In this document: in pieces, positions 11,073-62,048 of the stretch
How the letters are laid out: every line of letters begins with the position of its first letter
Position numbering within the stretch: position 1 is the first letter of the stretch
Source of the DNA: Botryllus schlosseri
Taxonomy: Eukaryota
Reading direction: 5' to 3'
Assembly (NCBI GenBank): GCA_051294905.1
Contig: CM119372.1
Coordinates: forward strand, 31,064,001 to 31,128,000
DNA length: 64,000 nucleotides
Notes under the pieces: generated by a model
Seen by the model: only the letters and a program-made list of their open reading frames with translations
What the model was told of the DNA's origin: nothing
Database searches by the model: none
Program-made: the position numbers and the translations under genes

Positions 11073-13832
11073 AGTAGTGATATGGGATTCGTTTCGTGCA
11101 GGCCAATCAAATTACGCCACGTCGCCCTAATTGCCACGCCTATATGATTCCCATTGCCGCACCTAACGCGTGTTTGTGAATGTGAATTTGTTTTCAATTG
11201 ATTTATATGCGTGTTTATATCTGCAATGACGCCCATTGCAACGCCTAGATATTCTAATGTTTTGTGAATTTCAATACCGATTTTCCATGTGTATTTAGCA
11301 ATATGTATTGAATAACTTGCTTCCGAGAAATAAATAACATTCATTATACGTTAGATGATTAAATTCCGAGACTTTATAATAATTTGCTTCCGAAAAATAA
11401 ACATCATCACTAATTAATTAATATAAAATGCTATTTTGAGCGCTGCGACTTGATAATATTAATCCCTACGCTTCTGATGCATGATTTTTTTTTGTGATAA
11501 GGAGCTTGGTAACATTCAGAGTCTGCAACGATTGTTTGGATATACATTATAGCAATACCCCACTAAAGTATAGGCGGTTATATTACTCTATTGGTCAGAG
11601 ATAACTCATCCGTCCATATTTATAAACTTGGTTTTATCTGAAGTAGAATTTCAGCGTCGTTATTTGTTATAAGCCGAGAAATGTACCTTCGCACAATTTT
11701 TACAGGCGGTCTCACACACTTTGCTGCGTCTGAAGTAAAATTTCAGCGTCGTTGTTTGCTATAAGCCGGGAAATTAGAGTCGCTGCTTCGCACCATTTTA
11801 CAGGCAGTCTCACACACTTTGCTGCATCTGAGCTTCCTACTAATACATGCATAATTTTTGCATGACGAGAATAGGGTAATACGGTCAATAAACGCCGGAG
11901 GCGAGTCATTTAAACCTTGTCGCTAGATAATACCGCTTTCGGCTACAACAAAGTTGCCCTGCAACAAAAAATAGAAGCCCTAATGATCATGCAGAGGAAA
12001 GTTCAATTATACATCGAATTATTCGAATAGACTATCTACATTGTGTAAGTATGAAGTGAAATAGAACGGAGTTCACGCAAAAGTTGCTATTGATCATAGA
12101 CCTAGCTTGCTTTCAGAGCTGGAAACTAAATGCATATGGAAATTTACCTAGGTTTTCCCCACACGCATCAAATGTAGGCCTACTCAAGTGTTTATGAGGT
12201 GGCGAATAGTAGGTTGTTGGCATGCAAGGACGTCACATAGAATTGTGGAGTTTTCTGTAAACTATAATCCAGTGATCTATTTTCAATCACTATATTTTTC
12301 AATAATCTAAACTAAGTACTGTTAGTATGCAAACCCTAGGAAAGTATCCTCTGATAAAAGCAGGAGTAATTTGTTATCTGTGAAATAAATAGATGGTGCG
12401 CAATATGAGCGGTGCTGCGATGACTGACAAATACTTTGAAATAATGTATAAAAGTAGCGATTTCGAACTACGTAAAAAGTTAGTCCAGCTCACGCATTTT
12501 CCATTTTCAAAAGTCAAAATACGACATTTTTTGTAAAATGAATACTAATTTTAATAAAAAATAGGAAAAAAAGAGCGAAAAATTACATTTTATCCCGGAA
12601 CGCAACAAGAAAAATCGTATGAATTTGTAAACTACTTATTCATGACATAATATTAATTCTACTTGTACACTTTTTCACATTTTATAACACTTTTAGTAGT
12701 ACTTAACAGTTTCAGTTTTAAATAAAATTCAGAATATAAACTAATCGAAAAATTCGATAACCAATTTCGCGTAGGCTATGCATACAAATGAGGAACGTTA
12801 CATCAACGCGTGTTAACTAGTTGTATTATGTAGCTTGTAATTCATGCAAGTAAGTCGGACAAATTCGTCGCATGAACACGACTCTATGGACATAAAGAAA
12901 TGAAAATTTTGTAAAGTAGATATTTTTCGGTATGCTAAATTCGGCTACGCGGTGCTAGTCTTCTTGGCCGCATGAAATAGGATGTTTTAGCTTCAACCTC
13001 AACGCATTAGCACACCGAATTTAAATATAGGCGATAAATAATATACAGTAGCTCCAATTTTAATGAAAAAATAAAAATAAAAAAGCGCGAAAAAATGCAT
13101 TTATCCTGGAACGCACCAAGAAAAACCGTATGAATTTGTAAAGTAGTTAGAAAACTACACTATTCCGCTACACTAAAGACTTTGACAATCCGGATTTTGT
13201 ATGGTGTATACTGTATACTAATTTTACATTGCGGAGTATTCAGTAAAGTTTAATCCAGTGATTCTCCATCTATTTTCAATCACGATCCTCTTATTTGTCT
13301 AGGCTTCGAACCCCACACCCAGTACGTTTTATGGGGATTAATATTTTCAGAGTCAAGTACATGGTATCGAGACTTCATGAAACTTACTTGCAAATAGTTA
13401 CTTCTACCCTAATTTAAAAGGTTTCTCAGATATCGTTACAATGGAACTGGGTTGAGCGAGCGGTTAAGGCGTTGGACTTAAGTTTCAATGATCAGGTGTT
13501 CACGTGGGTTCGAACCCCACACCCAGTACGTTTTACGGGGATTAACATTTTAGATTCAAATATAGCGTATCGAGTACTTTTTCCCAACTGTAATAAAAAC
13601 TTTTAGACTCCGGATTTTGTGTAGTAGGCTATATACTAATTTACAATACCGCATTTGTAATTCGTGCAAGTACAGGAATATCATAGTTCTTGTAACAAAG
13701 TTGTCTGCGCACAATATATGTTAATCATAAGTCCTACACATTCATGATTTCGTCCTAGTTTGAGTTTTAGAAAATATTATACCGATATCGCGGCATCTTT
13801 TAAAAACAAAACCATGATCAATGCTTGAGAGA
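11073..13832 (+). repeat. Left 2,760-bp inverted arm
   Basis: Reverse complement of 19944-22703. Paired coordinates sum to 33776 at both ends and at the mirrored ORFs (11712..11909 / 21867..22064; 11344 / 22432), so there is no net indel. About 8 substitutions seen by eye. Confidence 0.97.
13446..13528 (+). tRNA. tRNA-Leu(TAA) gene or pseudogene in the left arm
   Basis: 83 nt. Acceptor stem ACTGGGT/ACCCAGT plus discriminator A. Anticodon arm TTGGA-CTTAAGT-TTCAA. Long variable arm. T arm GTGGG-TTCGAAC-CCCAC, then a TTTT run. D-stem mispaired (AGC/GGC), so function is uncertain. Confidence 0.85.
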
Positions 13833-14501
13833 CTAGGTTTTAGACTACTTTATCGTTACTTGACAGTTTCAGTTTTAGATAAAATTTGGTAAGACTTTAA
13901 ATTTTAAAGTAGTTTGAGCTTACGTTTGTATCACCTTGACAAGTAACATTATCAGACATTAAAATGATATTATCACCTAATACAGAAGTTAACACACGTC
14001 AATGTGCTTCGGAATTCACGAGAAATTGCTTACTAAGAGAAGTATATTCTTGTATACACAATAGTGGAGAGAATCTTTAAAATGTAGTAAGCAGGCCGAT
14101 GGGTATTCGTTGAGTTGTATAAGCATAAAAACATTCCCGCGCGTCTTAGTATTAGGTGGTAGGGTTAGAAAAAGTTTAGGTTTAGGAGCGCGCGGGAATG
14201 TTTTTATGCTTATACAACTCAACGAATACCCATCGGCCTGCTTACTACATTTTAAAGATTCTCTCCACTATTGTGTATACAAGAATATACTTCTCTTAGT
14301 AAGCAATTTCTCGTGAATTCCGAAGCACATTGACGTGTGTTAACTTCTGTATTAGGTGATAATATCATTTTAATGTCTGATAATGTTACTTGTCAAGGTG
14401 ATACAAACGTAAGCTCAAACTACTTTAAAATTTAAAGTCTTACCAAATTTTATCTAAAACTGAAACTGTCAAGTAACGATAAAGTAGTCTAAAACCTAGT
14501 C
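13831..14501. repeat. Perfect palindrome: 313-bp arms (13831-14143, 14189-14501) around a 45-bp TTAGG-rich spacer
   Basis: Arms are exact reverse complements by eye (coordinate sum 28332). Spacer is TCTTAGTATTAGGTGGTAGGGTTAGAAAAAGTTTAGGTTTAGGAG. Confidence 0.97.
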
Positions 14502-15111
14502 ACTTTTTACGTGGAGGGAGTACATAGCGAAGTACTTGTACATTTTGGAGTACTCAAGTATAGATTTGGCCTGCTTGCGCTATACTTAATGAATCATTCC
14601 TGCGCAATAAACACTTGAGTAGTTGGTGCGTGTAGACAAAAACCTACTTGAGTACTTTAAAGAAGTACATATACTTCTCTGCTTAACATCTCTGAACGGT
14701 AGAAGTGGAGATATAGTCTACAAACACATTCAGTTAGTTACTTACTTTGTAATCGCTATTGCATAAGTAAAAAGTTAGTATTCAGGGGTCTATTTTTTGT
14801 TTAATACTGAAACAGTCTTGAAGTAGAAACGATCCTATATCACAAACATTCGAGTATTTTCTGTATGTAGGGAAAACCTACTTGAGTACTCAGTACTTCT
14901 CTACTCATCGTCTCTGAACGCTAGAGGTGGAGATAGTCTACAAACATTTACTTACTCACTTTGAAATCGCTACTTGTACTTCTATTCGAGAAGAATTGCT
15001 CGACGTTGAATACCATCCGAGAGCGTTTATGATGCTACTTTTACATCATAGAATATAGAGTTAAAAAGTAAATAATTTTATGATAATCTACATCATCAAG
15101 CTGAAAAGAGG

Positions 15112-18100
15112 ATGTACCATCAATTAGTACTTACGGATCATGATGAAGTGAAAATTCCTTATGGGCTCTATCACCAAACTATGACTGCATTGGACATCAC
15201 TAATATCGCGAATTCTCTTATTCGCCAATCTCACGTGTATGAGTTAGAATTTCGTCAATGTCATCTCAATGAAAACCTCGTCCAGATTCTATTGGATAAA
15301 ATTCGCGGATTTGAATATGGGGTAAACGCCTTCGCACATTCCGCTCGTAGTCATTGATCATTATAAATTCACGTTCAATTTAAGTATATGTTATCCGTAA
15401 ATATTGAGATACAGTTTTATCGTTATCGCATTGTTCTGTATTGCTAATGTGTTAAAGGCGCAAATTGGTGGTATCGCAGCGAACAATGCCCATTTGCTAC
15501 TGGTATAGGCATTAGTCTCGATAGCCTTACTAGATAGACTATAGTCAGAGTTGATCAGTGTTAGGCTGTTCATAGATCATTTAGCGTTTTATGCGTTAAG
15601 TTTTGCGCTCGTTCAGGTCGAAATAAGAAAACTCAGCGTTACAGCACACAACGACATTGAAAAACTCATCCCATTAATCTGCGAGCTGATGAAGGAGTGT
15701 GCTTCGACGGAGCTCAATCTGCAAGAAAGTGGTGGATCCGATGATTTTCTGATTATTTTGAGTAAACTTATCCAGCACCATCAGGAATTGGTGATGGAAA
15801 AAGCTAGGCGCTAATCTAGTATAGAGCCTCTCGAAGTGATATTTCCTAATACCTCATTTCCGTAGGTGAAATTGAAAAACCTCGATCTCAGCTACAGGGA
15901 GAACATTAACTTTACGCAACTCGGGACTATTATTTCGAGCGATCTAACATATTTGTCAGTTGTGAACTCGCGCTTGCAGTCAACAGATTTCATTGCTATG
16001 CAGCTCAAAAACATTAAGGTCTGCGCGATTATTGCTGGGTACAGTTGTTAATGATCACATTCTGTATGAGCGGCTGTGTAGAGATGGATGAGGGAAATTC
16101 TAGTTTAATCTTAGCCAGTGTTGGGATCAAGTCACTACCTTCGAGTCACGAGTCATCTCGAGTCATTGCAGATTTTGACTCGAGTCAAGTCAAGTCAATC
16201 GATTTTCAAAAGTGACTCGAGTCAAGTCAAGTCACTCGTTTTTTGGAGGTGACTCGAGTCAAGTCGAGTCAAGTCAAGTCAAGTCACGAGTCAAGTCACA
16301 ATTCAAGTCAAATTGAATTTTCGATGTATGAGTGATGATTCAAAGTCATTACACTTTGCTAGCTGTGTGAAAGACAGATTAATTGATCAATGCTGATCAT
16401 TTATCTTGAATCAAATAACGAATATCTAGTTAAATATACCTGCGAAAAGACGTTGTATCACTCACGCACACGTAGAACTGTTAATAAAATACGTGAGTAA
16501 CTGTACAGTCACATGCTACAATCAGTTATTATCAGCCAAAATATAGGACATAATCAACATCTATACATCCGTGAGTAAATAAACGCCCAAACTATATTTG
16601 TTTGACTTAAATCATACATAAAGGTTGGTAAAGGTGAGCACTGCGCAACGTAAGCATTGATCCGTCTAAGAAACAGAGACACATTGATATTTAGAGTAAT
16701 CTTCTACTACTACTACTACTACTAGTACTACGACAACGCAAGCTGTGATACTTTAGTTTGCGGTCTATTTATTTGTGATCTAACAATCGAGGATCAGTGT
16801 ATCGTACGATCAGTGAATGACTGGCTGCTCTCACAAAGTGACACCGGCGTATCTCGAACAATCCGAACATACACAAGATACAGTGATTTATTCGACACCG
16901 TTTACTTGATGACTTGAAATTGACTCGTAAATTTTGCTCCGAGTCACGAGTCAATGCGCATTTTTAAAGCTTCGAGTCAAGTCAAGTCAAGTCATTTTTC
17001 CAAAGTGACTCGAGTCAAGTCAAGTCATACGAAAAAGTTGACTCGAGTCTGACTCGAGTCAAGTCAAGACTCGAGTCATCCCAACACTGATCTTAGCACA
17101 TTTAGCCTATATTATGACGTGAGTGACTAAACAACATTTTTTGCTGTTATAAGTTTGAATTTTTTATGCCTGATCATTGCTGATCGTAAATTTACAGTTT
17201 CCGATATTTTTAGCTCCAATATCTTGACATTAGTTACAATCAGCTGGATGAAGAGTGTATGATCGCGCTGCCTGCCTTACTTTGTAAAGACAAAGCGGTT
17301 ACTCTTATCATGAAAGGATGTGGCCTTACACCCGAAGAAATTCGCGCTTTTGAAAGTTTTGCTGATATCGGGGTACTTGATCGTTTCTATAGTTTTGTGG
17401 ATCATTTTGAAATAAATTGGTGGATTTATAGGTTGAAAGCCTTGATCTGAGTTACAATACCGATATGGAACCGGCGGGCTTGAAAGAAATTGGATGCTTC
17501 GTGAGAAAGCATTACACGAAAACAGTTCGACTTTCAGCTTGCGAATTGGATGAAGACTCACTAATATCGTTAAATAATGGTCTCGGAATTTATGAGGTGA
17601 TCATTTGAACTAGATCTGTTTTGTTTTCTAACTGAAATATTCAATCACAGTGTAATGCTTATGTGAGTTTTAGTCATATTCAAGCATGACATTTCATTGA
17701 TCGATAGAATTTTCATCATCAATAAAGTGTTTCTGATCACGAGCTTCATTATCTTCTTCAGTGTTGAATAAGTTTTTGCTATTAGGAGTAGAAATCGCAA
17801 AAAAAAATGCTCAACCGTCGGTAAATAATATTATGACTAATCTATTACAGCCTTCGAGCCGTTTGTAGTCTCGTAAACTATCTGAACATCACACCATGTT
17901 TTAGCTGCATTCGCTGGATTTAAGTAGAAATCCTGGCATATCATCCTGCTACAAAACAGTAACTAAAGTCCTGTGCAATTCCCGTGTGGAAGAATTTAAT
18001 CTGTGTAATTGCAAGATGCTTTCCATGCAAATCAGGAATCTGAGCGAAGAGATGGGAAAACGATGCGGTACGGTAAGATCTTTCTGCTCAATCATAGATC

Positions 18101-18364
18101 CCAATGTAGCGATGTAGTTCGTTTCTTTACTTTTAAATTGATATTAATCTCGTATTATTCAATTAACAGCTAAAGGCAATCGACCTCAGTGATAGCGATA
18201 GAACGAGAATCGATGAGAAATACGTGAATTCCATTCAGAGCTTCGTGAGATATAATCCTGAATGCCGCAAAGTCAAACTAGTCTTACCGCGCTTCAGTGG
18301 GGAAGATATGAAGACCTTGAGAAAACAACTGTTCTCACCCAGTAAGGGGATATTTTCCGAATAA
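15112..18364 (+). CDS. Spliced LRR-only protein of NLR / ribonuclease-inhibitor type, about 407 aa. Exons 15112-15321, 15617-15790, 15866-16018, 17214-17372, 17432-17596, 17905-18072, 18170-18364
   Basis: Seven GT-AG, phase-0 exons of 153-210 nt join into an open frame with LxxLDLSxN repeats (LKNLDLSYRE, LQYLDISYNQL, VESLDLSYNT, LHSLDLSRNP, LKAIDLSDSD). Stop TAA at 18362-18364. An in-frame TAA at 15073 lies upstream of the ATG, and there is no NACHT exon inside the element. Confidence 0.8.
16116..17089. mobile_element. hAT-type MITE (CAGTGTTGGGAT TIR, GACTCGAGTCAAGTCAA subterminal arrays) in intron 3 of the LRR gene
   Basis: TIR CAGTGTTGGGAT / ATCCCAACACTG. 8-bp TSD ATCTTAGC at 16108-16115 and 17090-17097. 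Confidence 0.9.
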
Positions 18365-18462
18365 ATATGTATCTAGATGAGAATTAGGAGATTTCTCCTT
18401 TACTTGATAATGCTTTGCGTGAGCGCTACGGCCTGATAAGATTATAGGTAGGTAGGCCTACA

Positions 18463-18564
18463 TATTAGCAGAAGTTAAGACATGTCAATGTAACTTTATT
18501 AGCAGAAGTTAAGACATGTCAATGTAACTTTATTAGCAGAAGTTAAGACATGTCAATGTAACTT
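18463..18564. repeat. Tandem repeat, 3 x 34 bp (TATTAGCAGAAGTTAAGACATGTCAATGTAACTT)
   Basis: Identical units start at 18463, 18497 and 18531, with no spacers. Lies between the convergent 3' ends of the two cargo genes. Confidence 0.95.
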
Positions 18565-19007
18565 TCCGCATTTCTGTCTATATCGATTCGGAATCCACCA
18601 GAAATTGGTTACTATGTGAGCGAAGTATTCTTGCAAAGCAACAGCACAGGCAAATTTATATTTGTTCGGTATAGACAATATTATAGAATATGATATTTCC
18701 ATTTGGAGAGAAGACGAAATTTGATGTCGTAATGTAGGTTATTTTACACTATCGTAAATCTCTGTCGCTATAATGCTCGTAATCGAATCAAATTTGACCT
18801 GCAACGTATTCTGGGTAACCCTAACAAATTACTTACGTAGCTGTAGAAATTTGAAAAATTAAAAGTATAAAGAAGGTTTCCATATGGGGCAATCCTTCGA
18901 GTATTCTCAGAAGAAACTGTATAGATCTTACAGTAAAATGGATGCGATTAAACGATGAAGGATTTTATTCTTAAAATATTACATGAGACAAAACATGCGA
19001 ACATCCA

Positions 19008-19792
19008 TTATCTTGATAATGCCATTGCAATAGATTTCAGTCCGATTCCGACAAACACGAGTCCCTTCCAAACTTTATTGTAGTCGAAAGCGGTATTATC
19101 AAAGAATTCTACAAAGCCGTCCTGCAATAAAAATAGAAGCCTTAATGATCATACGGAGGAAAGTTATCGTGTCGTAGAATATAAATTGGGAACCGAATTA
19201 GAAGGTAAAGCTGAATTTCATCATCGAGAGGTGATATGGGCTCTGGAGAGCAGATACACTATATGTCTCATGCTAAAGATAATTTGTAAATCCTAAGCAA
19301 GGCATGTAAATCACCTACCCATCCTCCATTTCGCACTATCCACTTTCGTCTTTTGCTAGCAATGTAATTCCCAACTGTCTGTATGATAGCTTCTATATGC
19401 TCCCCGCGATGTTCAACATCGTTCTTGCGAGCAAGAATGCTACCGAGCACAAAAAGGGAGACAATCCTTCCCCAATTTTCTTTGGTATCTTTGAAAATTT
19501 CATCAGCTATCATCAGGAACATTCGCTCATCGGGTAAATATTCTTTATATTTTTTATTGACTTCAACATCACTACAGCGGAGACGTTTGGAGACTGCGTT
19601 TAGGACTGTTCGATATCGCTCGAACATTTCATCCCCAACTTGACGTAAGGTTCTCTCTGCTTTCGTATTTACCTTAACGCATGAGCCGTCGAGTTCGTAC
19701 ATGATAAAATTCCTGGTCAAGGAATATGCTTCGGATATAATTTCATCCTTTTCTTCAGTGATCGAAGGTGCTGATACTCGTGATAATTCCAT
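19008..19792 (-). CDS. Bcl-2 family apoptosis regulator, 195 aa. Exons 19792-19319 and 19121-19008
   Basis: BH4-like LTRNFIMYEL, BH3 LRQVGDEM, BH1 EIFKDTKENWGRIVSLFVLG. BH2 WIVRNGGW|DGFVEFF is split by a 197-bp phase-0 GT-AG intron at the family-conserved position after GGW. Hydrophobic tail VWKGLVFVGIGLKSIAMALSR*. No stops or frameshifts. Confidence 0.93.
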
Positions 19793-19943
19793 GGTTTGAG
19801 GAGAATAGCGAGTCAAAGCTTATTTCGAGATCTAAGCTACTTTGAAAATGAGGATCCTAGGATTTGCTTAATTTTCATCTATATCGTACAATGCGTTTTC
19901 GCGTTCCAGAATGACTTATGTCAATGAAAAATAGCAAAAATGA

Positions 19944-22703
19944 TCTCTCAAGCATTGATCATGGTTTTGTTTTTAAAAGATGCCGCGATGTCGGTATAAT
20001 ATTTTCTAAAACTCAAACTAGGACGAAATCATGAATGTGTAGGACTTATGATTAACATATATTGTGCGCAGACAACTTTGTTACAAGAACTATGATATTC
20101 CTGTACTTGCACGAATTACAAATGCGGTATTGTAAATTAGTATATAGCCTACTACACAAAATCCGGAGTCTAAAAGTTTTTATTACAGTTGAGAAAAAGT
20201 ACTCGATACGCTATATTTGAATCTAAAATGTTAATCCCCGTAAAACGTACTGGGTGTGGGGTTCGAACCCACGTGAACACCTGATCATTGAAACTTAAGT
20301 CCAACGCCTTAACCGCTCGCTCAACCCAGTTCCATTGTAACGATATCTGAGAAACCTTTTAAATTAGGGTAGAAGTAACTATTTGCAAGTAAGTTTCATG
20401 AAGTCTCGATACCATGTACTTGACTCTGAAAATATTAATCCCCATAAAACGTACTGGGTGTGGGGTTCGAAGCCTAGACAAATAAGAGGATCGTGATTGA
20501 AAATAGATGGAGAATCACTGGATTAAACTTTACTGAATACTCCGCAATGTAAAATTAGTATACAGTATACACCATACAAAATCCGGATTGTCAAAGTCTT
20601 TAGTGTAGCGGAATAGTGTAGTTTTCTAACTACTTTACAAATTCATACGGTTTTTCTTGGTGCGTTCCAGGATAAATGCATTTTTTCGCGCTTTTTTATT
20701 TTTATTTTTTCATTAAAATTGGAGCTACTGTATATTATTTATCGCCTATATTTAAATTCGGTGTGCTAATGCGTTGAGGTTGAAGCTAAAACATCATATT
20801 TCATGCGGCCAAGAAGACTAGCACCGCGTAGCCGAATTTAGCATACCGAAAAATATCTACTTTACAAAATTTTCATTTCTTTATGTCCATAGAGTCGTGT
20901 TCATGCGACGAATTTGTCCGACTTACTTGCATGAATTACAAGCTACATAATACAACTAGTTAACACGCGTTGATGTAACGTTCCTCATTTGTATGCATAG
21001 CCTACGCGAAATTGGTTATAGAATTTTTCGATTAGTTTATATTCTGAATTTTATTTAAAACTGAAACTGTTAAGTACTACTAAAAGTGTTATAAAATGTG
21101 AAAAAGTGTACAAGTAGAATTAATATTATGTCATGAATAAGTAGTTTACAAATTCATACGATTTTTCTTGTTGCGTTCCGGGATAAAATGTAATTTTTCG
21201 CTCTTTTTTTCCTATTTTTTATTAAAATTAGTATTCATTTTACAAAAAATGTCGTGTTTTGACTTTTGAAAATGGAAAATGCGTGAGCTGGACTAACTTT
21301 TTACGTAGTTCGAAATCGCTACTTTTATACATTATTTCAAAGTATTTGTCAGTCATCGCAGCACCGCTCATATTGCGCACCATCTATTTATTTCACAGAT
21401 AACAAATTACTCCTGCTTTTATCAGAGGATACTTTCCTAGGGTTTGCATACTAACAGTACTTAGTTTAGATTATTGAAAAATATAGTGATTGAAAATAGA
21501 TCACTGGATTATAGTTTACAGAAAACTCCACAATTCTATGTGACGTCCTTGCATGCCAACAACCTACTATTCGCCACCTCATAAACACTTGAGTAGGCCT
21601 ACATTTGATGCGTGTGGGGAAAACCTAGGTAAATTTCCATATGCATTTAGTTTCCAGCTCTGAAAGCAAGCTAGGTCTATGATCAATAGCAACTTTTGCG
21701 TGAACTCCGTTCTATTTCACTTCATACTTACACAATGTAGATAGTCTATTCGAATAATTCGATGTATAATTGAACTTTCCTCTGCATGATCATTAGGGCT
21801 TCTATTTTTTGTTGCAGGGCAACTTTGTTGTAGCCGAAAGCGGTATTATCTAGCGACAAGGTTTAAATGACTCGCCTCCGGCGTTTATTGACCGTATTAC
21901 CCTATTCTCGTCATGCAAAAATTATGCATGTATTAGTAGGAAGCTCAGATGCAGCAAAGTGTGTGAGACTGCCTGTAAAATGGTGCGAAGCAGCGACTCT
22001 AATTTCCCGGCTTATAGCAAACAACGACGCTGAAATTTTACTTCAGACGCAGCAAAGTGTGTGAGACCGCCTGTAAAAATTGTGCGAAGGTACATTTCTC
22101 GGCTTATAACAAATAACGACGCTGAAATTCTACTTCAGATAAAACCAAGTTTATAAATATGGACGGATGAGTTATCTCTGACCAATAGAGTAATATAACC
22201 GCCTATACTTTAGTGGGGTATTGCTATAATGTATATCCAAACAATCGTTGCAGACTCTGAATGTTACCAAGCTCCTTATCACAAAAAAAAATCATGCATC
22301 AGAAGCGTAGGGATTAATATTATCAAGTCGCAGCGCTCAAAATAGCATTTTATATTAATTAATTAGTGATGATGTTTATTTTTCGGAAGCAAATTATTAT
22401 AAAGTCTCGGAATTTAATCATCTAACGTATAATGAATGTTATTTATTTCTCGGAAGCAAGTTATTCAATACATATTGCTAAATACACATGGAAAATCGGT
22501 ATTGAAATTCACAAAACATTAGAATATCTAGGCGTTGCAATGGGCGTCATTGCAGATATAAACACGCATATAAATCAATTGAAAACAAATTCACATTCAC
22601 AAACACGTGTTAGGTGCGGCAATGGGCGTCATATAGGCGTGGCAATTAGGGCGACGTGGCGTAATTTGATTGGCCTGCACGAAACGAATCCCATATCACT
22701 ACT
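19944..22703 (-). repeat. Right 2,760-bp inverted arm
   Basis: Reverse complement of 11073-13832. Starts TCTCTCAAGCATTGATC (19944) and ends CATATCACTACT. Confidence 0.97.
20248..20330 (-). tRNA. tRNA-Leu(TAA) gene or pseudogene in the right arm (mirror copy)
   Basis: Reverse complement of 13446-13528. Confidence 0.85.
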
Positions 22704-25700
22704 CATCGCGATACTTAATCGTTCAATATGCGGTCATTTTACCCGCGTTGGTGACCACTGATGTAGGACGTACAAACCCTTAGTAAAGATTGCACGTGAA
22801 CATCACTTACATTGGAACGCCGCTTTGTCTTGCTCATGTTTGTGATCGGCAATGTTTTCTCACAAAATGCATGTAGACCCGGGCCGCAAGCTCCATTACA
22901 TGTAAGACAGAAACTGTCTGCGGGCGGCCCCAAAAACTGGCTGAGCTGACGCTTCAAGTGGTTAAAATAAATCATTATAAGCCATCAAAAAGAAATACTA
23001 GGAAGACTTTTGCAGCTCACTCACCGACAATTCCAGTTTGGCGCGCATCTGGCACGTGGTCAAATCCATGTCGCACCTGGATTCGTATCAACGCCGGCCT
23101 AAGGACATGCTGCTTGATGGTGCAGAGCGGCAGTTCGGCTCGTAAATAATAGTATTATTCGTGTGACATGAACGTGACTTAATATTGTATCATCACGTTC
23201 CCAACATTCTCACATCCACCAGCTCTTCAGCTAACTCTAGCTGCGTAAGCGTAGGGCATATAAAAATCGTATGCGCCAGGCGAGTTCAGGCTCGAAGTAG
23301 AAGAATATATCGGTATCTCAGTATAAACAGTAATTTGTCATTGCAAACGGCATGATTTTGTTACAATGCATTGAATGGTGACGAAACCGTGGTACGTAGG
23401 CTACACTTCATTGATCATGAGTCGTATGACTGATATAGTAGGCTATACGAAAGAGTGCAGTTTGTAAGATTCTAAACCTCTACTAAGAATAACGAGAACC
23501 ACAATAACATGAAGGGTTATTTGGAACATTTTCAAAATACGATTTTTGTATCACAATTTCGAAGGTCGTTACAGATACAATAAACCGGAATCAACACAAC
23601 TCTCACTTGGTCGTGTGTCTCGTTACTCTCTGTAGAGGCTTTCGATGGCGATGGAAGTGGAAAGTTACGGTTATACTGGTGTATGTGAACAAAGATACCG
23701 GGCGGGGTCTATGCTTTTCGCCACGTACCCGACCGCGTAATATTGTAATCCAGCCCATCAGCCTAATTCAAGGGCAGATGATTTTTTCGCTTCTTCACCT
23801 AAGCCAAACATGGGTCACGCACGCACACAGGCTTATGTTGACGAGTAACAAGGCAACGAGGTCTGTATCAGAGCAATGCCGTTACTGTTGGCTGTAAGTA
23901 GGGGATGCTGGGCAAAATCGGGTACGCTAGTGATTCGAATATTATGCTTCGACTCGAATAGACTGTACAATCGTGTCTTTTCTATAACTCTGGTCATTAT
24001 ACGCCCCTTGATGTTGCACTCTACTAGCATTAGACCAAAATGTTTCGTCAAAGCAATTTAAAGCAAATATATCAAACATCACAACTATAGGGTTGTGATT
24101 AAAACAAGAATCTATTTAAAACAAACTTGTTCAAAACAACGCCCTTTTTTGAAACATGTTTAAAAAAATCTAATCCATGACGTCTCGCATTGGTATTCAC
24201 AATTGAAAATACAGGTTAAATATAGCTCCTTTGACGAAATAGGCTTCCAACCCCTGTCATATACGGACCAAAAATATCTTTAACCAGGACTACATCGTCG
24301 TGCAGCATTTGTACGGTCGGCGCCTCGGCGGTCTTCATGATCAGAGCATTCATTCCGTACAAATGATCTATATCTGCTTACTGTTAGCTGTTGAACCCAC
24401 TATTTCGAGCAAACTTCCCATATCGTGTATACATCGGCTATATCGGGTGGCAATCGTCGTCCTTAGGCTCATACAGCATGTTTTTTGAAAGTATTTACAC
24501 AATTATAGCATAATTAAACAACTTAGAAAAACATTTTTTGAACGCCTTTGTTTAAAACACTGCTTAAAACATGTTTTAAGCAATTCGTTTTAAACAACCA
24601 TTTGTTTTAAATGCGACCCTAATCACAACGAAGCAAATGCTACTTCTCCCTCGCGAGCACAGTGAAAAGTCGATAAACAATACCTCTAATATCTTCTATT
24701 GCAGCGGTTCGAAATTCGGCGGGCGCGCCTTCCTTGGAGGGGGAACGGGGCATGGAAACATCAGGAGGGCGCGAAGCCGTGGTTAACTGTAAAAAAATTT
24801 CGCGGTCTGCGCGATTTATCCCCAGTTCATAGCTTTTGCTTTGTCCCATCCACAGTCATAACCTTCCATGCCATCATACTATCTGTTGTGATTGCTAGCA
24901 TTCTGGCTACATATAATGATGTGACGATAATGAGGCGCGAGATATTTTACTATCATAAAGGATGGCGTGTCTGAAAAAGTTTGAGAACCACTACTCAATT
25001 AAAATATTTTGCAGTCCGAAACAGGATGTCAAATGATTTGTAATTCTTTATAATTTATGCTAATTCATGAAATAAGTTTGGGCCCCCTTCGAGCTCGGCC
25101 CCCCTTAATTGGGAGATTTGAGGTGGGGCAGTTACGGCCCTGACTATAGGACTACCAATTATGCTGCTTTTAGCCGGCTAAGCGGTATGCATCTCGGCGT
25201 ATATTCAACCGTGAGTCACGTGTTGCACATCTAGCTATCATAGGGTTACCATACGTCCTCTTTTAAGATGATATGTCCTCTTTTTTGATTTTTTTAAAAG
25301 TGACCACGGAGGACGCCCAAATGTCTTCTTTTTCGGGATTTTGTTTATTTTTTGAGGATTTTGGTTACATAAAGGGCCAAATTCGACTAATATGCATTAA
25401 GTCAGCACTGTAGGAACGCTACGGCGGCTATTTCGGGAGCTGGACCGGAAAGTTAACGTTTTTTTTTCAGTCAACCACCTGTTAATGTGAAAGAAAAACT
25501 GTATTTTCCGGGAGTTGAGCCTCTTTTTCTTTTTCAGTCAAGCGACCACGAAGTGGGAAAAATTTACCATTTTTTCAGGATTTTCCTCCGGTTTTGAAAG
25601 TTTTAAATATCTATTTATATCTATAGCTACTGCTCGTTCAACTGGATGGTTAGGGCACATTGCATTGAAACAACAGTGACGTAACGTTAGCAGTCTATAC

Positions 25701-43900: not shown

Positions 43901-46900
43901 TAGCCAGACACACCGTAAATCCACGTTCGTATAGCCATGAGAGATGAGATGGATATTCCAGCCTAGAATCATGTCTTCTGAAATTGTGAACTCATCAGCT
44001 GACGTAATTTAACACGCCAACGAACTGCAGCGTCATTATTTGTCGCCTCAACATATGCAATGTAGGCCTATATACATAAGTTACAGATGTGCGGTATTTA
44101 ATCAGGTGGCACTATATATCCTTGATTTGGGTCTAGAAAAGGGGCCTTACCTAGTTTCCGCACACAGCATCCAACATTTTAAACATTTTATGGATTTACA
44201 CTTGACACCATTGCTAATAAATGATAGAATATATTCAATATAATATGCATAAAGATATTGCACTCATTGAGAAAAGACTCACATGAACTTGTGTGTGGCC
44301 CAGTGGTCTCAGACTTTCTGTAATAATGTTCATCATCTCGTCGTTCATATTACAATTGCAAAAGTTGAATTCGTCGAGGCCGTTGGCACCTTTGCTCGTT
44401 GCTGCTAACGTTCCAACAATATGAGCTTCGTCACGGCGCAATGGGACGTTGGAGGCATTGATGACGGAGAGACCTTTCATCAGTTCGTCGTCGCAATTTG
44501 ATTCGTAAATTGCGGTGTACAATTCCATGCGATTATATCTGTTGTTGAACCCATCCCGTGTCTTCTCAATTTGCGAGCGAATCGATGCGGCAAAAATTTC
44601 TCTTTTGCCAGACTGATCTGAGAAGACGAAGATCCTTTAATACATTAGAACTATTAGAATTGGATGTAGCAAATATGTGGTCAACATGAAGTGTCATGCT
44701 TGACTTAAACTTGATAAGACTAGCGCAGCAATGACTCTGGATCTGGTCGCGATCAATATGCAGCCTTATACGGAGAACAACGGCAATTTCGACGAATATA
44801 CATTGTGATTTCGACGTTTTTGCCAGATATGGACTTTTTAGTCGCTTGTCTTCAAACCTGACATGTTATATGCTGGGTAGTGAGCATATTTGTAACAGGA
44901 TTTCTGGCTCGTGTTCTAAATGGCGAGTGGTAAACACCGAGTGTCAAAATAGAGAGTCATTCGAAGTAACACAAGCTATAACTTGACTCCCACTTTAACC
45001 CAACATAACCTAGCTTTATGCTAACGCAATATAATCTGACCTTATCTGTAGCCGCAACCACATAAAAACGTAGCCCATCCCCTCAGCCCCACCGAACCCC
45101 TCAACCCCATTCGTATAGCCGTCACACTAGCTAACCTGACACCGAACCATAACAAATCGATCCGACCTTATCCCTAACCCTCGCCCTAACCCAAACAATC
45201 CCTAACACTAACTCGACATTGTCAATAACTCTGTATTTTGAATGACTCTGTATTATGAATAACGTATTAGTAGTATGACACACCTTGTTTTGACAGTCGC
45301 TATATCGAAGCCTGGCTATTTTGAATTCACGCTATTTTGTACTCGCAATTTGGAAGTCGCTATTTTGGCGGGTCGCGAGGATTTCTACATCTCTTATATA
45401 CAATACACACGAACACACTCTCATCAAAAATATCTGTTGCGGCCCAAATATGCCTCAACAGAGATTTGCATATAGGTATTACTCCGGTACCATATCTATC
45501 GAGTTATTGGTTCAGGTGAGATGTCATGGTAAACATGAAGGCTATACAACGTATCACTTCGGGCTTAGGCATTGACCCGACCATATGTCATGCCTCCAAC
45601 GAGACAAAATGACCATGTCGGCTACCAAATGAGGAGTGACGTATGAGGTATACCTTTTATGAATACCTGGCCATCGGGAATTGATGCCAGATAGAGAACG
45701 CCAGTAACAAATCTTCGAACTACAGACCATCGTTCCTCGTGGAGCTCTCTGTTGTTGAAGTCGGTGAATTCCGTGAACTTCATTTCCGCTATATAGCTCG
45801 CTGCCAAAAATTCTTGCATGCTTTGATGGCAGAAGAAGAACGTGAAATCGCCTTCCATCAGATGACTGCTGACAAGATTAGTATCCGGAACTTTCGTCAT
45901 CAAATCGTGGACTTCATTCGCGGAGATTTGATAATTCTTCAAATCGCTTTCGTAGAATATGACCCTCCTTTCTTTCATGCCCTGAAACGCCATACCCTTC
46001 AATTTCTTGATAATCCCAGAAATTTGCCTCCTATTTCTTATATTTTCCACACTGCGGAATGATAATACGATCCTGTTGTACAGTTCTGTAACTGTCGCTG
46101 GAAGTGGTTTTTCCGGGTCACTTCCCATCACAATCGCCGTTAGAATCAGGAACACCGGTATTGTGATAAGATTGAGTAATCTTGGTGACATGGTTCGGAT
46201 ATTATTCCACAGATGCGCACCGTTCTCGCCTACTAGAAAAGTGAACAAAGACCGCGCGTCTTTTAATTCAAGTCCAGTAAGCGTGATAATATCGCGTGGT
46301 CGTGATTTCGCGGGTAGCTCTGATATCTTAAACTCACGTGAAGTCACGACGATTCTAGTGCTGCGAAGGACATTACGAGCCAAGATGTTGTAAATGATAG
46401 TTGGGGTATCTGCTTTACTGTAAAGGTCCATTTTACGAAGTTCGCTATCGTCAAAATCCCACCCGGCTTGGTCAAGGCCGTCTAGGATTAGAAGCACTTC
46501 GGATTGATGGTTTACTAACCATTCGAAAGTGTTAGCTATGTCAGATTTCTTTCCGAAAAGTCCGCCAAATAAAAATTTGGATAATGTCATAGACCTTTTC
46601 TTTATATCCTTCAATTCAATGTAGCGCACCATTTTAAATTTAATCGACTGGGTCGGATTGACGTCGCTTTTTGCAAGCGGAATTCCCTGAGCCGCTTGAG
46701 CTAATCTGCGTGTAAGAGTGGTTTTACCCGACCCCGCGGATGCGATTATACACGTCACATCGACTGCATTAGATAACTCCGATCTTTTCCTGTTCGATAT
46801 TGAGACGATTAGGTCATTAAATTTTATCACACTCCCTCTATTCTCGTCTTGGCCGTAGAACCCCGCCTCCTCTGTCAGTTGATTTCGGATTGATTTAACC

Positions 46901-47155
46901 GTTGACCCTTCGTAGATTGCGGGATCTGACGTGCGATTTACGCCGTGACGACCTTTAAAGTAATCCGCGAAGTCTACTCTTCGCATTTTGGGATGAACTA
47001 CAAGACTGGGTTCATTGAGCTGTTCGGGCCTGTAGTCATCAAGGATGCTGACAGTCGTATTTTCCTTGGTGCGGTTGTTGACGGTCTCTACCAGTTTCTC
47101 ATAGTTGATATCTGCGACAAAATTTGACTCATTCATACGAGAAAAGGTGATATCT
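40982..47155 (-). CDS. NACHT-LRR (NLR-like) gene, possibly damaged at the 3' end. NACHT exon about 47155-45654; further candidate exons 44617-44283, 43577-43473, 43304-43143, 41956-41870, 41603-41525, 41274-41194, 41131-40982
   Basis: Walker A IIASAGSGKTTL, Walker B VLLILDGLDQ, sensor IVVTSR, IPVFL motif, winged-helix FCHQSMQEFLAASY. Phase-1 join AAAG|GT (45654) to CAG|AT (44617) is in frame with LRR-like FNFCNCNMNDE and VENVDLRQNSL. The 5' end and distal exons are less certain. Confidence 0.85.
44980..45215. repeat. Degenerate (CCTAAC/TAACCC)-like low-complexity tract in an NLR intron, flanked by short inverted repeats
   Basis: C/A-skewed TAACC, CCTAAC motifs. Flanks AATAGAGAGTCATTC (about 44948) and GAATGACTCTGTATT (about 45240). 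Confidence 0.55.
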
Positions 47156-47163
47156 CTGTAGTA

Positions 47164-48008
47164 CAGCGGGGCATGGACCGTAGCAGGATTGGATATCCGG
47201 CCCAACCGGCAGGATCTTCTCATTTATGGCCGGGGCCGGATTAGAGCCGGATCAGCACTTCTCAGGGATGAGCGGATTTGAAATTTCAATGTCCTAATTC
47301 AATCCAAATCCGAAGCTTCAAATCCTAATCCTAGTCCTAATCCATAACTTTAGTATATTAAACTCCCAATCCTAATCCGATATAATCGTAGAATTCCTTT
47401 TAGAACTTAGCCTACATCTTTTGCCTATAATTCCCTAAAAAGAAAGAAAACGCATATTGAGTGCCAAAGTACATGAAGTAACTTTGGTAGGACGAAAATC
47501 TTTTTCGCCATTCACCACAGGACATCAATCGTACTGAACATCGGTATATGCAATCCAAATCCTAATCCATTTTCAAAAACATCTGAAATCCTTTCCAATC
47601 CTAATCCGGCAAAATTTCACAAATCCGGTTTTCCCAGATCCTAATCATAATCCATGGTCAACTCGGGCACTTTTCCTGATACGGCCGGAATCGTATCGGA
47701 ACTAGATCTCTACTTTCACCTTGGAATCAATAGTTACATTAAACAGCATTTCATGTAAATAAACCGCATGTTAGGACAAAGTTGCCATCATTACTTCAGA
47801 TAAGGGTTAGGCTTGATCTTTGAATTTTTAAATTTCTGTTTGTATTGTTTCAATCAATATTCAATACCAACCTGTGATTATGGCCGGAGTTGTCGGACCT
47901 GACCACGGATATTTCTAGGATCCGGCCTAGGAGTCGGACCGCAGTCGGACCAGGGAATTAAAAAACAGGATCGGAATCGGATCAGAGAATTTGTCAATCC
48001 GTCCGGCG
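47164..48008. mobile_element. CCGGA-rich MITE abutting the 5' edge of the NACHT exon, with a nested AATCC-type MITE (about 47263-47666)
   Basis: Similar to about 51590-52008 (GCATGGACCG...GAGAATTTGTC). Boundaries approximate. Confidence 0.65.
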
Positions 48009-59712: not shown

Positions 59713-62048
59713 CCATGTAGCCATACAATACACTTGTCTGGTATAGCCATGAGATTTACATTGGTTTTAGGCGGAAAAGAACTTCTTATTATTCGACAAT
59801 TCATGTAAAAACACTCATCTTTCAAAAATGTTATTTTTATAGTTGAATGAATTTCAATCGATTGAGACATTCAAAATTTGACAAATTTGATTGCAATAGA
59901 ACTAAAAGGAAACTCGGCAATTGCATGCGTATGGGTTCCCGAAATGAGTATCCAATGAAAAAACAAAAGCTATTAGCCAAGGAAAGCGCTGTTCTGATCA
60001 TCAGTGAATTTCGGAAACTCGAAAGTAACGATACGTTTCACATTGAAAAATTTAGCAGTTAATATATTATGTTTCAACTAACTACCAGTGATGTGTGGAT
60101 TCAATGCGCGACCACGCAATATCGTTCCATTGTTGCAGACCGAATCTGGGGTGGATACCTATTGGCGATGTCTGTAATGTCGACGGTGTCAGCATCTATA
60201 CTTCGGCAATATCACCTTAGCGATGTGATCCATACATTTCGGCCATACTATTGATTAAATTATTCATATATTTTAGGGATCTCATATTGTACTTTGACGG
60301 TGAATAAGTTTGTTAAATTCTAAAATATTATATTTATATACTAACACGATGCATGTGTCCTCTATGCATATTGTGTTTATCTCATAATTTTAACCTATTA
60401 TGCTTATCCTCTATACACCAAGTATAATAACATTTCTAGTCACTTATTTATAAACGTGACTTTTTCCTGCCAGACGGGAATTGCTGTAATAGTAAATGAC
60501 ATTTTCGCGACGTGTGTGAAATGTCAGTGAACAAGGTCGGCTCACTTTTAATTGGACAATTTCATCCTGTCAAATAGGACGTACTTGGAAAGACAATGAG
60601 TATACCTGTTGATGCCGAGGCTCGTGACGCCATCAAAATCCTGGAAATTGGTCGTCAGCACATTTGAGTTTGAGACCCCTGATCTAACCCTTGCAATAGC
60701 TCTAGTTCTCAACTTCCTATTCCCGACAAAAGCATTACGTCACCACAACGCTGATGGTACGCAATAAGCTGTACTGTCTGGCTACACTTCACCGCAAAGC
60801 AATCGATCTTCAATGACTGTCGCTGACATCCAACCTGCTACCGCGGCCAGCGCAACCTTTATAAAGACGTAATATTTATAAAAATATAGTAACTCGGTGG
60901 TATGACTCAAAACTTTAGGTCATAATAAACGGACGTAAAACAGTTGACTCAAGGTAAAACGTTTATTTAAATCGTTTTCACAGTATTGTAAAAAAAACAA
61001 GTGTCACAAACCAAAAGCTATGCAATAGTGAATCCCAACTATCACGGGATGAGCTAACGGGAATTGACAAATAATGATGGCTCCGAGAGCAGACTGTACC
61101 TGTAAGGGTGCGCTAATAATCGACGAGCAATTAACGTAGACGCGAAAAATTAACCTGATATCAGTTGAGCCCCGTTGCTGAAAATTCACGTGAAGAACCG
61201 AATTCTTAACTATATACTGAGATTATGATTGCCTACAAGCACGAATTCGTGCATAATCTATATATAACCCTACTTCAAGTCCATATTTATGGCGACTTGT
61301 TTTTGTTTAATCAAAGCATGCTTTCAAATCGAACGGATTATCTTCGCGTCCTAGTATCAATGCAGTAAATCAGATGCTACGGAGTCGTACAGGCTTTATT
61401 CATTGCATCATTACAGAATATGTCATCGGGAAGTTACATTCACTTCGGATCAACTTACTGGCTCATACTATTTCAATAGGGAATATTATGCACACTCTGA
61501 CATCGCCGCAGAAAAGTATAGGCTACGCTACATACGTTACCGTGTTATATTGCGTATTGCTATATTGGCTTCCAGGAAATAGCAGCCATTCCCGTACTGG
61601 TTGAATTCCCGAATTCTCCTTTGTGTGCATGACAGTAGTGTATAAGGATGATTTTATGGCCCCAATCAGAGCATGCCACGTCACAAGCTATGTTACGCAT
61701 CACAAACTTTTAAAAACGGCACTTTCACGGAATCGACCGACTACCTCTGACATCTGAACTAGGAACAATACCACTACACTACCGAGCCTAACCTAGCGCC
61801 CTACGCTTATTTGAGACTATAAATAAAAGTGTCATGAAATTTTCAAAGGGGTGTGCGAAATTCGCGGGTACCTACGAGGAATGAAATAACCACTGACACC
61901 TTCGATACCATCGAAGCCGTTTGTTTACGTAGTAACCGTAGAAAATTTCGCTGCACCATTTAAAAAAATTCAAAAACTGCACTTTCACAGACTTGAACCG
62001 ACGTGAATATGGCGGCGCTTCAGAATCGCGTTCGAAACATTTCGTAAA

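Follow-up and report, generated by a model that had tools for sequence, protein, structure and literature searches.

The window analyzed here, a 64,000-nucleotide stretch of the Botryllus schlosseri genome, holds an intron-containing gene of the Bcl-2 family between two long inverted arms. This arrangement raises the question of how a cell-death regulator came to be carried there and what it may do for its carrier. The account that we consider probable as a whole is that a Polinton captured the Bcl-2 gene, which now resides on three carriers, with the palindromes among them moved in trans and with a pro-survival role for the product.

The Window Element Is a Polinton Derivative

The element spans positions 11073-22703 (11,631 bp; 11.6 kb). 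Its parts and the flanking duplications are given below, with the strand in brackets where one applies.

11067-11072 (+): left target-site duplication, CATCGC, 6 bp
11073-13832 (+): left arm, 2760 bp, starting with AGTAGT; left half of the palindrome as it remains after an internal deletion
11926-12003: two short rearranged Bcl-2 pieces (intron end and exon 2), mirrored at about 21773-21850
13446-13529 (+): tRNA-Leu(TAA) of the left arm; its counterpart upstream of pPolB in fully equipped Polintons is 88% identical
13828-14504: hairpin of 316 bp with a 45-nt loop; ancestral palindrome centre, by comparison with sister elements
15112-18364 (+): LRR-only gene, the second cargo, 407 open codons, convergent with Bcl-2; seven exons (15112-15321, 15617-15790, 15866-16018, 17214-17372, 17432-17596, 17905-18072, 18170-18364), all introns phase-0 GT-AG
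16116-17089: hAT-like MITE, a later insertion in LRR intron 3, with the 8-bp duplication ATCTTAGC; the empty site is found in a public contig
18463-18565: tandem repeat, 3 x 34 bp, between the convergent 3' ends of the LRR gene and Bcl-2
19008-19121 (-): Bcl-2 exon 2, 37 codons and stop, BH2 end and hydrophobic tail; equals parent exon 3
19122-19318 (-): Bcl-2 intron, 197 bp, GT..AG, phase 0, directly following GGW and placed like intron 2 of the parent
19319-19792 (-): Bcl-2 exon 1, 158 codons ending in NGGW, with alpha1/BH4, BH3, BH1 NWGR and the BH2 start; equals parent exon 2 with a new ATG
19793-19943 (-): upstream segment; its last ~30 bp are a remnant of parent intron 1 (3' end), and the remainder gives a borderline alignment only
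19944-22703 (-): right arm, ending in ACTACT; 19944-20720 is ~95% common to sister Bcl-2 elements
20247-20330 (-): tRNA-Leu(TAA) of the right arm, on the Bcl-2 strand, 455 bp upstream of the Bcl-2 ATG
22704-22709 (+): right target-site duplication, CATCGC, 6 bp

According to the available text of PMC8097293, Mavericks end in the motif (AGT)2//(ACT)2 and duplicate 6 bp of the target. The window element has these Polinton features, namely long TIRs, AGTAGT/ACTACT ends and a 6-bp duplication. The nine other terminus pairs examined all shared these ends and carried a 6-bp duplication as well (six exact, three with one mismatch), which is far beyond chance. The terminal 74 bp of the window element are 76% like those of a polymerase-less Polinton family present in the same genome. 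Foldback, MULE or hAT identity for the whole element was ruled out by the duplication length and the AGTAGT ends.

Within the element, pPolB and integrase are absent, the Bcl-2 exon being the longest stop-to-stop frame, and so are capsid proteins, packaging ATPase and protease, all of which related carriers have. The tblastx and blastn comparisons with the Polinton coding regions of four loci (L082, L086, L087, L089) matched the window element only at Bcl-2 and the tRNA. The search of viral_contigs gave no relative. By its ends, its dispersed copies at different target sites and the helpers in the genome, the element is a non-autonomous Polinton (Maverick) derivative. This bears out two proposals of the initial annotation, which had read the gene as mobile-element cargo and had linked it to Polintons; the second also agrees with the Polinton carriers of the same gene described below. 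A further AGTAGT Polinton-type terminus starts at 61634, and integrase and polymerase matches lie 5-9 kb past the window end (C2:31132922, C2:31136647).

The arms (11073-13832 and 19944-22703) showed 8 differences over 2760 positions and are thus 99.7% identical, as in a fold-back artefact. An assembly artefact, a segmental duplication or an ordinary host gene at its ancestral locus nevertheless has next to no probability. The exact target duplication, the 8 differences and the dispersed copies with different target sites contradict it, as do a separate three-exon parent gene and the presence of the sequence in runs of several independent studies. We regard the artefact and host-locus readings as refuted by the dispersed copies, the target duplication and the separate parent.

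In sister elements on contigs C10 and C17, the sequence of the window hairpin forms the centre of a palindrome. This comparison showed the window copy to be a palindrome from which the Bcl-2/LRR part of the left arm (~4.5-5.4 kb) has been deleted. The deletion join has 2 bp of microhomology. The arms contain the Bcl-2 fragments in either orientation, which testifies to earlier template switching.

The distance from the ATG at 19792 to the inner edge of the right arm at 19944 is 152 bp, as previously measured. The significance attached to this proximity to the TIR edge did not hold, since the inner edge of the right arm is simply the mirror of the left-arm deletion and the sisters hold the whole gene within both arms; the distance therefore has no design value. 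The block 19793-20720, including the tRNA, is ~95% common to close sisters and is the likely candidate promoter region. Other Bcl-2 carriers match the window only 20-90 bp upstream of the gene, so each carrier would supply its own promoter region. The promoter must be element-derived, because the parent exon 1 and promoter were left out of the capture.

The Cargo Is a Complete Bcl-2 Family Gene

The window gene encodes a protein of 195 aa from two exons, with NWGR and the tail intact, and exon 2 is trailed by ~140 bp of parent-like 3' UTR. Exon 1 matched the Pfam Bcl-2 family (PF00452) with an E value of 1e-21 and 77.7 bits against a cut-off of 31.4. The BH1 motif NWGR, the BH2 motif WxxxxGGW and the BH3 motif LRxxGDE are all present, and among distinct copies NWGR was retained in 33 of 36, W..GGW in 36 of 36 and LR[RQ]VGDE in 32 of 36. 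The AlphaFold2 model, which covers exon 1 and was built from a 90-row alignment (89 homologues), had a pLDDT of 90.1 and seven helices. Used as a Foldseek query, it gave 335 PDB matches at E<=0.001 with TM of about 0.65-0.74, including Bcl-xL, Bcl-2, NRZ, BOK, BAK and Mcl-1. The best 17-mer of the C-terminal membrane anchor has a hydropathy of 1.79 in the window copy vs. 1.98 in the parent.

By Pfam, motifs, predicted fold and tail, the window gene is a multi-BH member of the Bcl-2 family. The reading of the gene as a complete BH4-BH3-BH1-BH2-tail protein with an intron directly after GGW in BH2 was thus confirmed. Pro-survival and pro-death members are inseparable by sequence and fold, as BOK and BAK match too. 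The closest PDB entries by sequence were Mcl-1 (E 4.5e-10) and Bcl2L10/NRZ (1.3e-9), at about 30% identity, followed by Bax (8.3e-8). The word-indexed protein search with Bcl-2 returned a single distant mollusc protein and nothing else. A copy-specific marker lies at position 19036 in the hydrophobic tail: of the 29 close copies with a full tail, the window copy alone encodes Lys where the others have Thr.

The Gene Was Captured from a Host Parent at the DNA Level

The nearest named relative is the Styela clava bcl-2-like protein 2 (49% identical). Used as a genome query, this orthologue hit best at a distinct locus on contig C14. The C14 gene has three exons, the first of which matches the Styela N-terminus; it occurs once on the chromosomes, and the unplaced contig C112 carries a probable allele. 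The case in which the window would hold the host's single syntenic Bcl-2 orthologue is thereby excluded.

The element gene consists of the counterparts of parent exon 2, intron 2 and exon 3, and lacks exon 1. Its ATG stands where parent exon 2 has its second codon, and the copies align with the parent from ~30 bp inside intron 1. The 3' UTR of element and parent aligned with a score of 90 against a shuffle maximum of 45. Meanwhile, alignment was lost in the intron (23 vs. 39 shuffled) and was borderline in the upstream segment (32 vs. 32 shuffled). As the intron position, the intron-1 remnant and the 3' UTR all match the parent, we conclude, in agreement with the initial annotation, that the capture took place at the DNA level and omitted exon 1 and the host promoter. 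The same three features rule out a retrocopy origin of the window copy.

The Polinton took up the stretch of the C14 gene that starts near the end of intron 1 and reaches the 3' UTR, and gained a new ATG; the resulting protein lacks the ~37-residue N-terminal exon of the parent.

The Captured Gene Resides on Three Types of Carriers

The exon-1 protein matched the genome in at least 150 copies on 18 contigs, with 78-100% identity; this count represents 150 of the 150 matches scored among 417 candidates, a list biased to the best copies. Internal stops were present in 11 of the 150. The copies stand mostly in convergent inverted pairs, 3-16 kb apart. In the 30 closest loci, the intron position (GT donor) was always kept, in six of them with an intron shrunk to 58 bp, and 28 loci had both the ATG and the full tail, the other two having lost the ATG or carrying a truncated tail.

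The pairs belong to palindromes of about 6-17 kb, which lack Polinton coding genes and carry Bcl-2 and often the LRR-only gene in both arms. The LRR gene was co-amplified (40 of 40 and 150 of 150 scored matches, 45-100% identity), often lies between Bcl-2 pairs and is largely open down to 59% identity. At each of two loci, C10:21036721-21057643 and C9:13235380-13257049, two palindromes stand in tandem, with four Bcl-2 copies within about 21 kb.

Complete Polintons are also present in the genome, with at least 144 integrase and at least 86 polymerase matches to protein queries among those scored. In one fully equipped family, 12 of 12 integrases were accompanied by an open pPolB and an intron-less Bcl-2, situated about 270-340 bp inside one end. 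A sister form of the window gene is thus present in all 12 integrated elements of a family with a complete viral gene complement, and may be regarded as a candidate viral Bcl-2. One of these elements has Bcl-2 at both ends and an exact 6-bp duplication. In the two loci read, the intron-less gene stops nine residues after GGW, with BH2 in register and the tail absent, and the element also encodes capsid, protease, ATPase, an E2-like ORF and tRNA genes. The single-sequence AlphaFold2 model of the intron-less protein reached a pLDDT of 47.8 and was set aside. At L087, a tRNA-Ala, an ORF that by eye resembles E2 ubiquitin-conjugating proteins, and a tRNA-Pro lie beside the intron-less Bcl-2 (3978-4838). 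At L088 (1-2538), a fully equipped Polinton starts 1.7 kb from a palindromic arm of the window type and may be nested there.

The second family has 42 integrases, which were paired by eye from coordinate lists: 32 had a polymerase upstream, seven had an intron-bearing Bcl-2 in the place of the polymerase, and three had neither listed. At the one of these seven loci that was inspected, the Bcl-2 gene continues into the final ~45 polymerase codons, with a BIR gene upstream. These polymerase-less Polintons retain the integrase and capsid genes as well as the Bcl-2 intron and tail, and add the BIR gene. At L085, the BIR/IAP-domain gene (2692-3327, minus strand; Pfam 3.8e-18) is divergent from Bcl-2, and the element is inserted in a reverse-transcriptase ORF.

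This single capture now occupies three carriers: fully equipped Polintons, polymerase-less Polintons and palindromes free of Polinton genes. The palindromes would have formed by copying of one end back on itself. Copy-back defective viral genomes are likewise mirror-image genomes that keep the replication ends. Judging from the shared ends, the palindromes are presumably copied and inserted in trans by polymerase and integrase acting via the Polinton ends.

As to the second cargo, the internal exons of the LRR-only gene have 51-58 codons and phase 0, like the LRR part of NLR genes, and this pattern of exon size and phase we take to indicate an NLR origin. The Atlas LRR hits for the cargo agree with this origin. 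The host parent of the LRR gene was not found: there was no clear match to the NACHT gene of the window and none among longer proteins, and copies crowd the genome search. The NACHT gene (45622-47223, minus strand) is a 533-aa frame in which Pfam identified NACHT and NOD2 winged-helix domains (2e-17), and is probably a host NLR gene.

Phylogeny and Selection

The protein tree comprised 36 rows, five of them called intron-bearing by the GT donor alone, with L069 dropped and no named reference set. In this tree, the 26 element copies formed one clade (100/99), sister to the C14 parent (97/93), and the two intron-less copies were nested among the intron-bearing ones. The AU test rejected a clade of intron-less copies with the parent (p 0.0175) and did not reject monophyly of the intron-bearing copies (p 0.157). 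In the nucleotide FastTree, unlike in the protein tree, the intron-less copy adjoined the parent. The best reading of these trees is a single capture followed by intron loss, an order that is likely.

Selection was estimated on exon 1 by the Nei-Gojobori method for 37 distinct of 52 copies, with pairs that are not independent and no transition correction. Between the parent and the copies, dS was 1.2-1.9 and dN/dS 0.08-0.15. The copy pairs with dS above 0.2 gave a dN/dS of 0.24-0.34 (0.24 above dS 0.4), and comparisons between subfamilies sampled mainly from palindromes 0.24-0.42. Meanwhile, the close young copies were near neutral at 0.57-0.71 (0.71 at dS under 0.02). The pN/pS ratio was 0.33 for shared variants and 0.51 for singletons (difference p 0.098). 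These ratios clearly point to long-term purifying selection on the element Bcl-2, and young inserted copies are, by the same estimates, less constrained. Neutral evolution of the copies, the case set against the earlier reading, is thus approached by the young copies but does not describe the older divergences.

The idea of an early stage of vBcl-2 acquisition had to be abandoned, given the dS to the parent, the intron that no longer aligns with the parent's and the intron-less derivative already fixed in the fully equipped Polinton family. Judging from these divergences, the capture is old.

The near-neutral ratios of close copies would also suit passive hitch-hiking, in which Bcl-2 is useful only to self-equipped Polintons, and the palindromic copies, the window copy included, multiply via their ends and decay almost neutrally. 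The stops in 11 of 150 copies, the lesions in 2 of 30 and, as described below, the low RNA depth with no splice junction among the joints listed fit this reading. It is a possibility of the lesser kind, as the ratios between the mainly palindromic subfamilies stay at 0.24-0.42, the GT donor is kept in all 30 close copies, including the six with the 58-bp intron, and the linked LRR gene is largely open down to 59% identity.

Element-Type Bcl-2 Copies Are Weakly Transcribed

A sample of 3-6% from each of three raw RNA runs was mapped, along with one contig set, at 92% likeness, a threshold that excludes the 75%-identical parent from the signal. In bulk RNA, exon 1 was covered at a depth of 2.6-5.2, against 0.4 for a bin that is largely intron. 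The signal in two single-cell runs lay on the minus strand at Bcl-2 and on the plus strand at the LRR exons, and these runs also had intronic depth at Bcl-2. The 19121/19319 splice junction was absent among the joints listed, a list filled mainly by MITE reads. At position 19036, 17 of 17 raw reads carried the common allele; therefore, the RNA signal is assigned to the copy family as a whole. The element-type Bcl-2 copies are weakly transcribed as a family. The expected expression was thus recovered as low, strand-correct family RNA, without the 19319-19121 junction among the listed joints.

A Proposed Pro-Survival Role of the Captured Protein

The protein may most plausibly be a deregulated pro-survival Bcl-2 that sustains the cell during replication of the element, a view to which we incline with moderate confidence. 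In this it would resemble the viral Bcl-2 proteins. This role is suggested because the groove motifs are intact, the best matches are Mcl-1-like and a BIR gene is a companion.

The truncated protein might instead be dominant-negative, pro-death or a non-apoptotic modulator (autophagy, calcium, mitochondrial shape). The BH3 motif LRxVGDE, which we take to be common to Bax/Bak-type proteins, and the BOK and BAK fold matches speak for such a function. So does the absence of Apaf-1 and caspase-9 from ascidians, as stated in the part of PMC10959488 available to us, which makes the downstream pathway uncertain. We consider this function quite improbable, as the best sequence matches place Mcl-1 and Bcl2L10/NRZ ahead of Bax, the polymerase-less family carries a BIR gene, and a host could hardly tolerate killer copies that number in the hundreds and are transcribed.

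The pro-survival function may also act at another level. The copies could favour host cell lineages (stem or germ cells, cyclical apoptosis, chimeric competition), so that selection among host lineages rather than viral replication would amplify them. The very large number of copies of a Bcl-2 that is open, tail-anchored and truncated at its N-terminus, the transcripts in whole-animal and single-cell runs and the cyclical apoptosis of Botryllus, described in the available portion of PMC4818882, are consistent with such a drive. Against this, expression looks low, and the fixation of the gene in fully equipped Polintons together with the recurrence of Bcl-2/IAP in adintoviruses (PMC8502044, as far as its available text goes) points to a viral role, which leaves host-lineage selection improbable. 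A bolder version, speculative and in our estimate unlikely, would have palindromic Polinton satellites spread by a cell-survival cassette, formed by the truncated Bcl-2 and an LRR-only decoy of a host immune receptor, with bearer cells outlasting programmed death or stem-cell competition; the genome would then record the stepwise viral conversion of an intron-containing host gene to an intron-less one.

Relation to Known Systems

Bcl2 and IAP homologues have already been published in adintoviruses (PMC8502044, available in part). According to the portions of PMC8502044 and PMC8097293 at hand, the elements described here belong to the same class as adintoviruses and Polintons, with Bcl-2 and BIR/IAP accessory cargo, the same ends and the 6-bp duplication. 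The Bcl2 of the Branchiostoma lancelet adintovirus (A0A5H3CWZ2) was 12% identical in the fold search, which indicates a separate capture. Unlike in adintoviruses, the parent, intron-bearing and intron-less forms share one genome here, and most copies lie on palindromes without viral genes. The arms of the window type measure 2.8-7 kb vs. 46-1447 bp in the available report on vertebrate Maverick TIRs. In nematode Mavericks (wasp/krma; bioRxiv 10.1101/2022.07.12.499685, available in part), intron-containing host-type cargo likewise lies near a Maverick end and is shuffled between elements; that cargo consists of proteases and kinases moved between species, whereas here a cell-death regulator of the same host is present in at least 150 copies.

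As far as described in the accessible text of PMC6431247, planarian Burro LTR retroelements also combine a transposable element with apoptosis-regulator domains (BIR, BCL2-like), which are parts of a retroelement polyprotein, whereas here a separate intron-containing gene lies in a DNA element. The same text covers Pack-MULEs and Helitrons, likewise non-autonomous carriers of host DNA; their cargo is mostly fragments, whereas the Polinton-ended palindromes found here hold entire open genes that are under constraint.

The predicted fold is shared with the viral Bcl-2 proteins (adenovirus E1B-19K, gammaherpesvirus BHRF1/BALF1/ORF16, ASFV A179L, poxvirus, iridovirus). Viruses generally streamline captured genes, and the loss of the N-terminal extension here, with the additional loss of intron and tail in the fully equipped family, resembles the streamlining of viral Bcl-2. 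Unlike for those proteins, the host parent is still identifiable (65-75%), and the window copy, known from its sequence, retains the intron and tail. Poxviruses reportedly capture genes by LINE-1 retrocopying, whereas the capture here was by DNA. To our knowledge, the host parents and capture steps of viral Bcl-2 genes are usually lost. With the parent, the intron-bearing intermediates and the intron-less, tail-less Polinton form in one genome, DNA-level capture and intron loss, as an alternative to retrocopying, can be studied directly.

The literature search gave no report of this Bcl-2 amplification or of a traceable series from parent to intron-less form, and the main text of the Botryllus genome paper makes no mention of Maverick or Bcl. 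Whether cell-survival cargo drives the spread of non-autonomous elements is a testable question raised by these copies. The mobile elements have also added at least 150 Bcl-2-family genes to Botryllus schlosseri, which will confound annotation, RNA mapping and apoptosis knock-down work. As a minor observation, runs labelled with two other organisms (X15, X16, X19) hold 0.47-0.71 of the words sampled from 18960-19900; these could represent related species or mixed samples.
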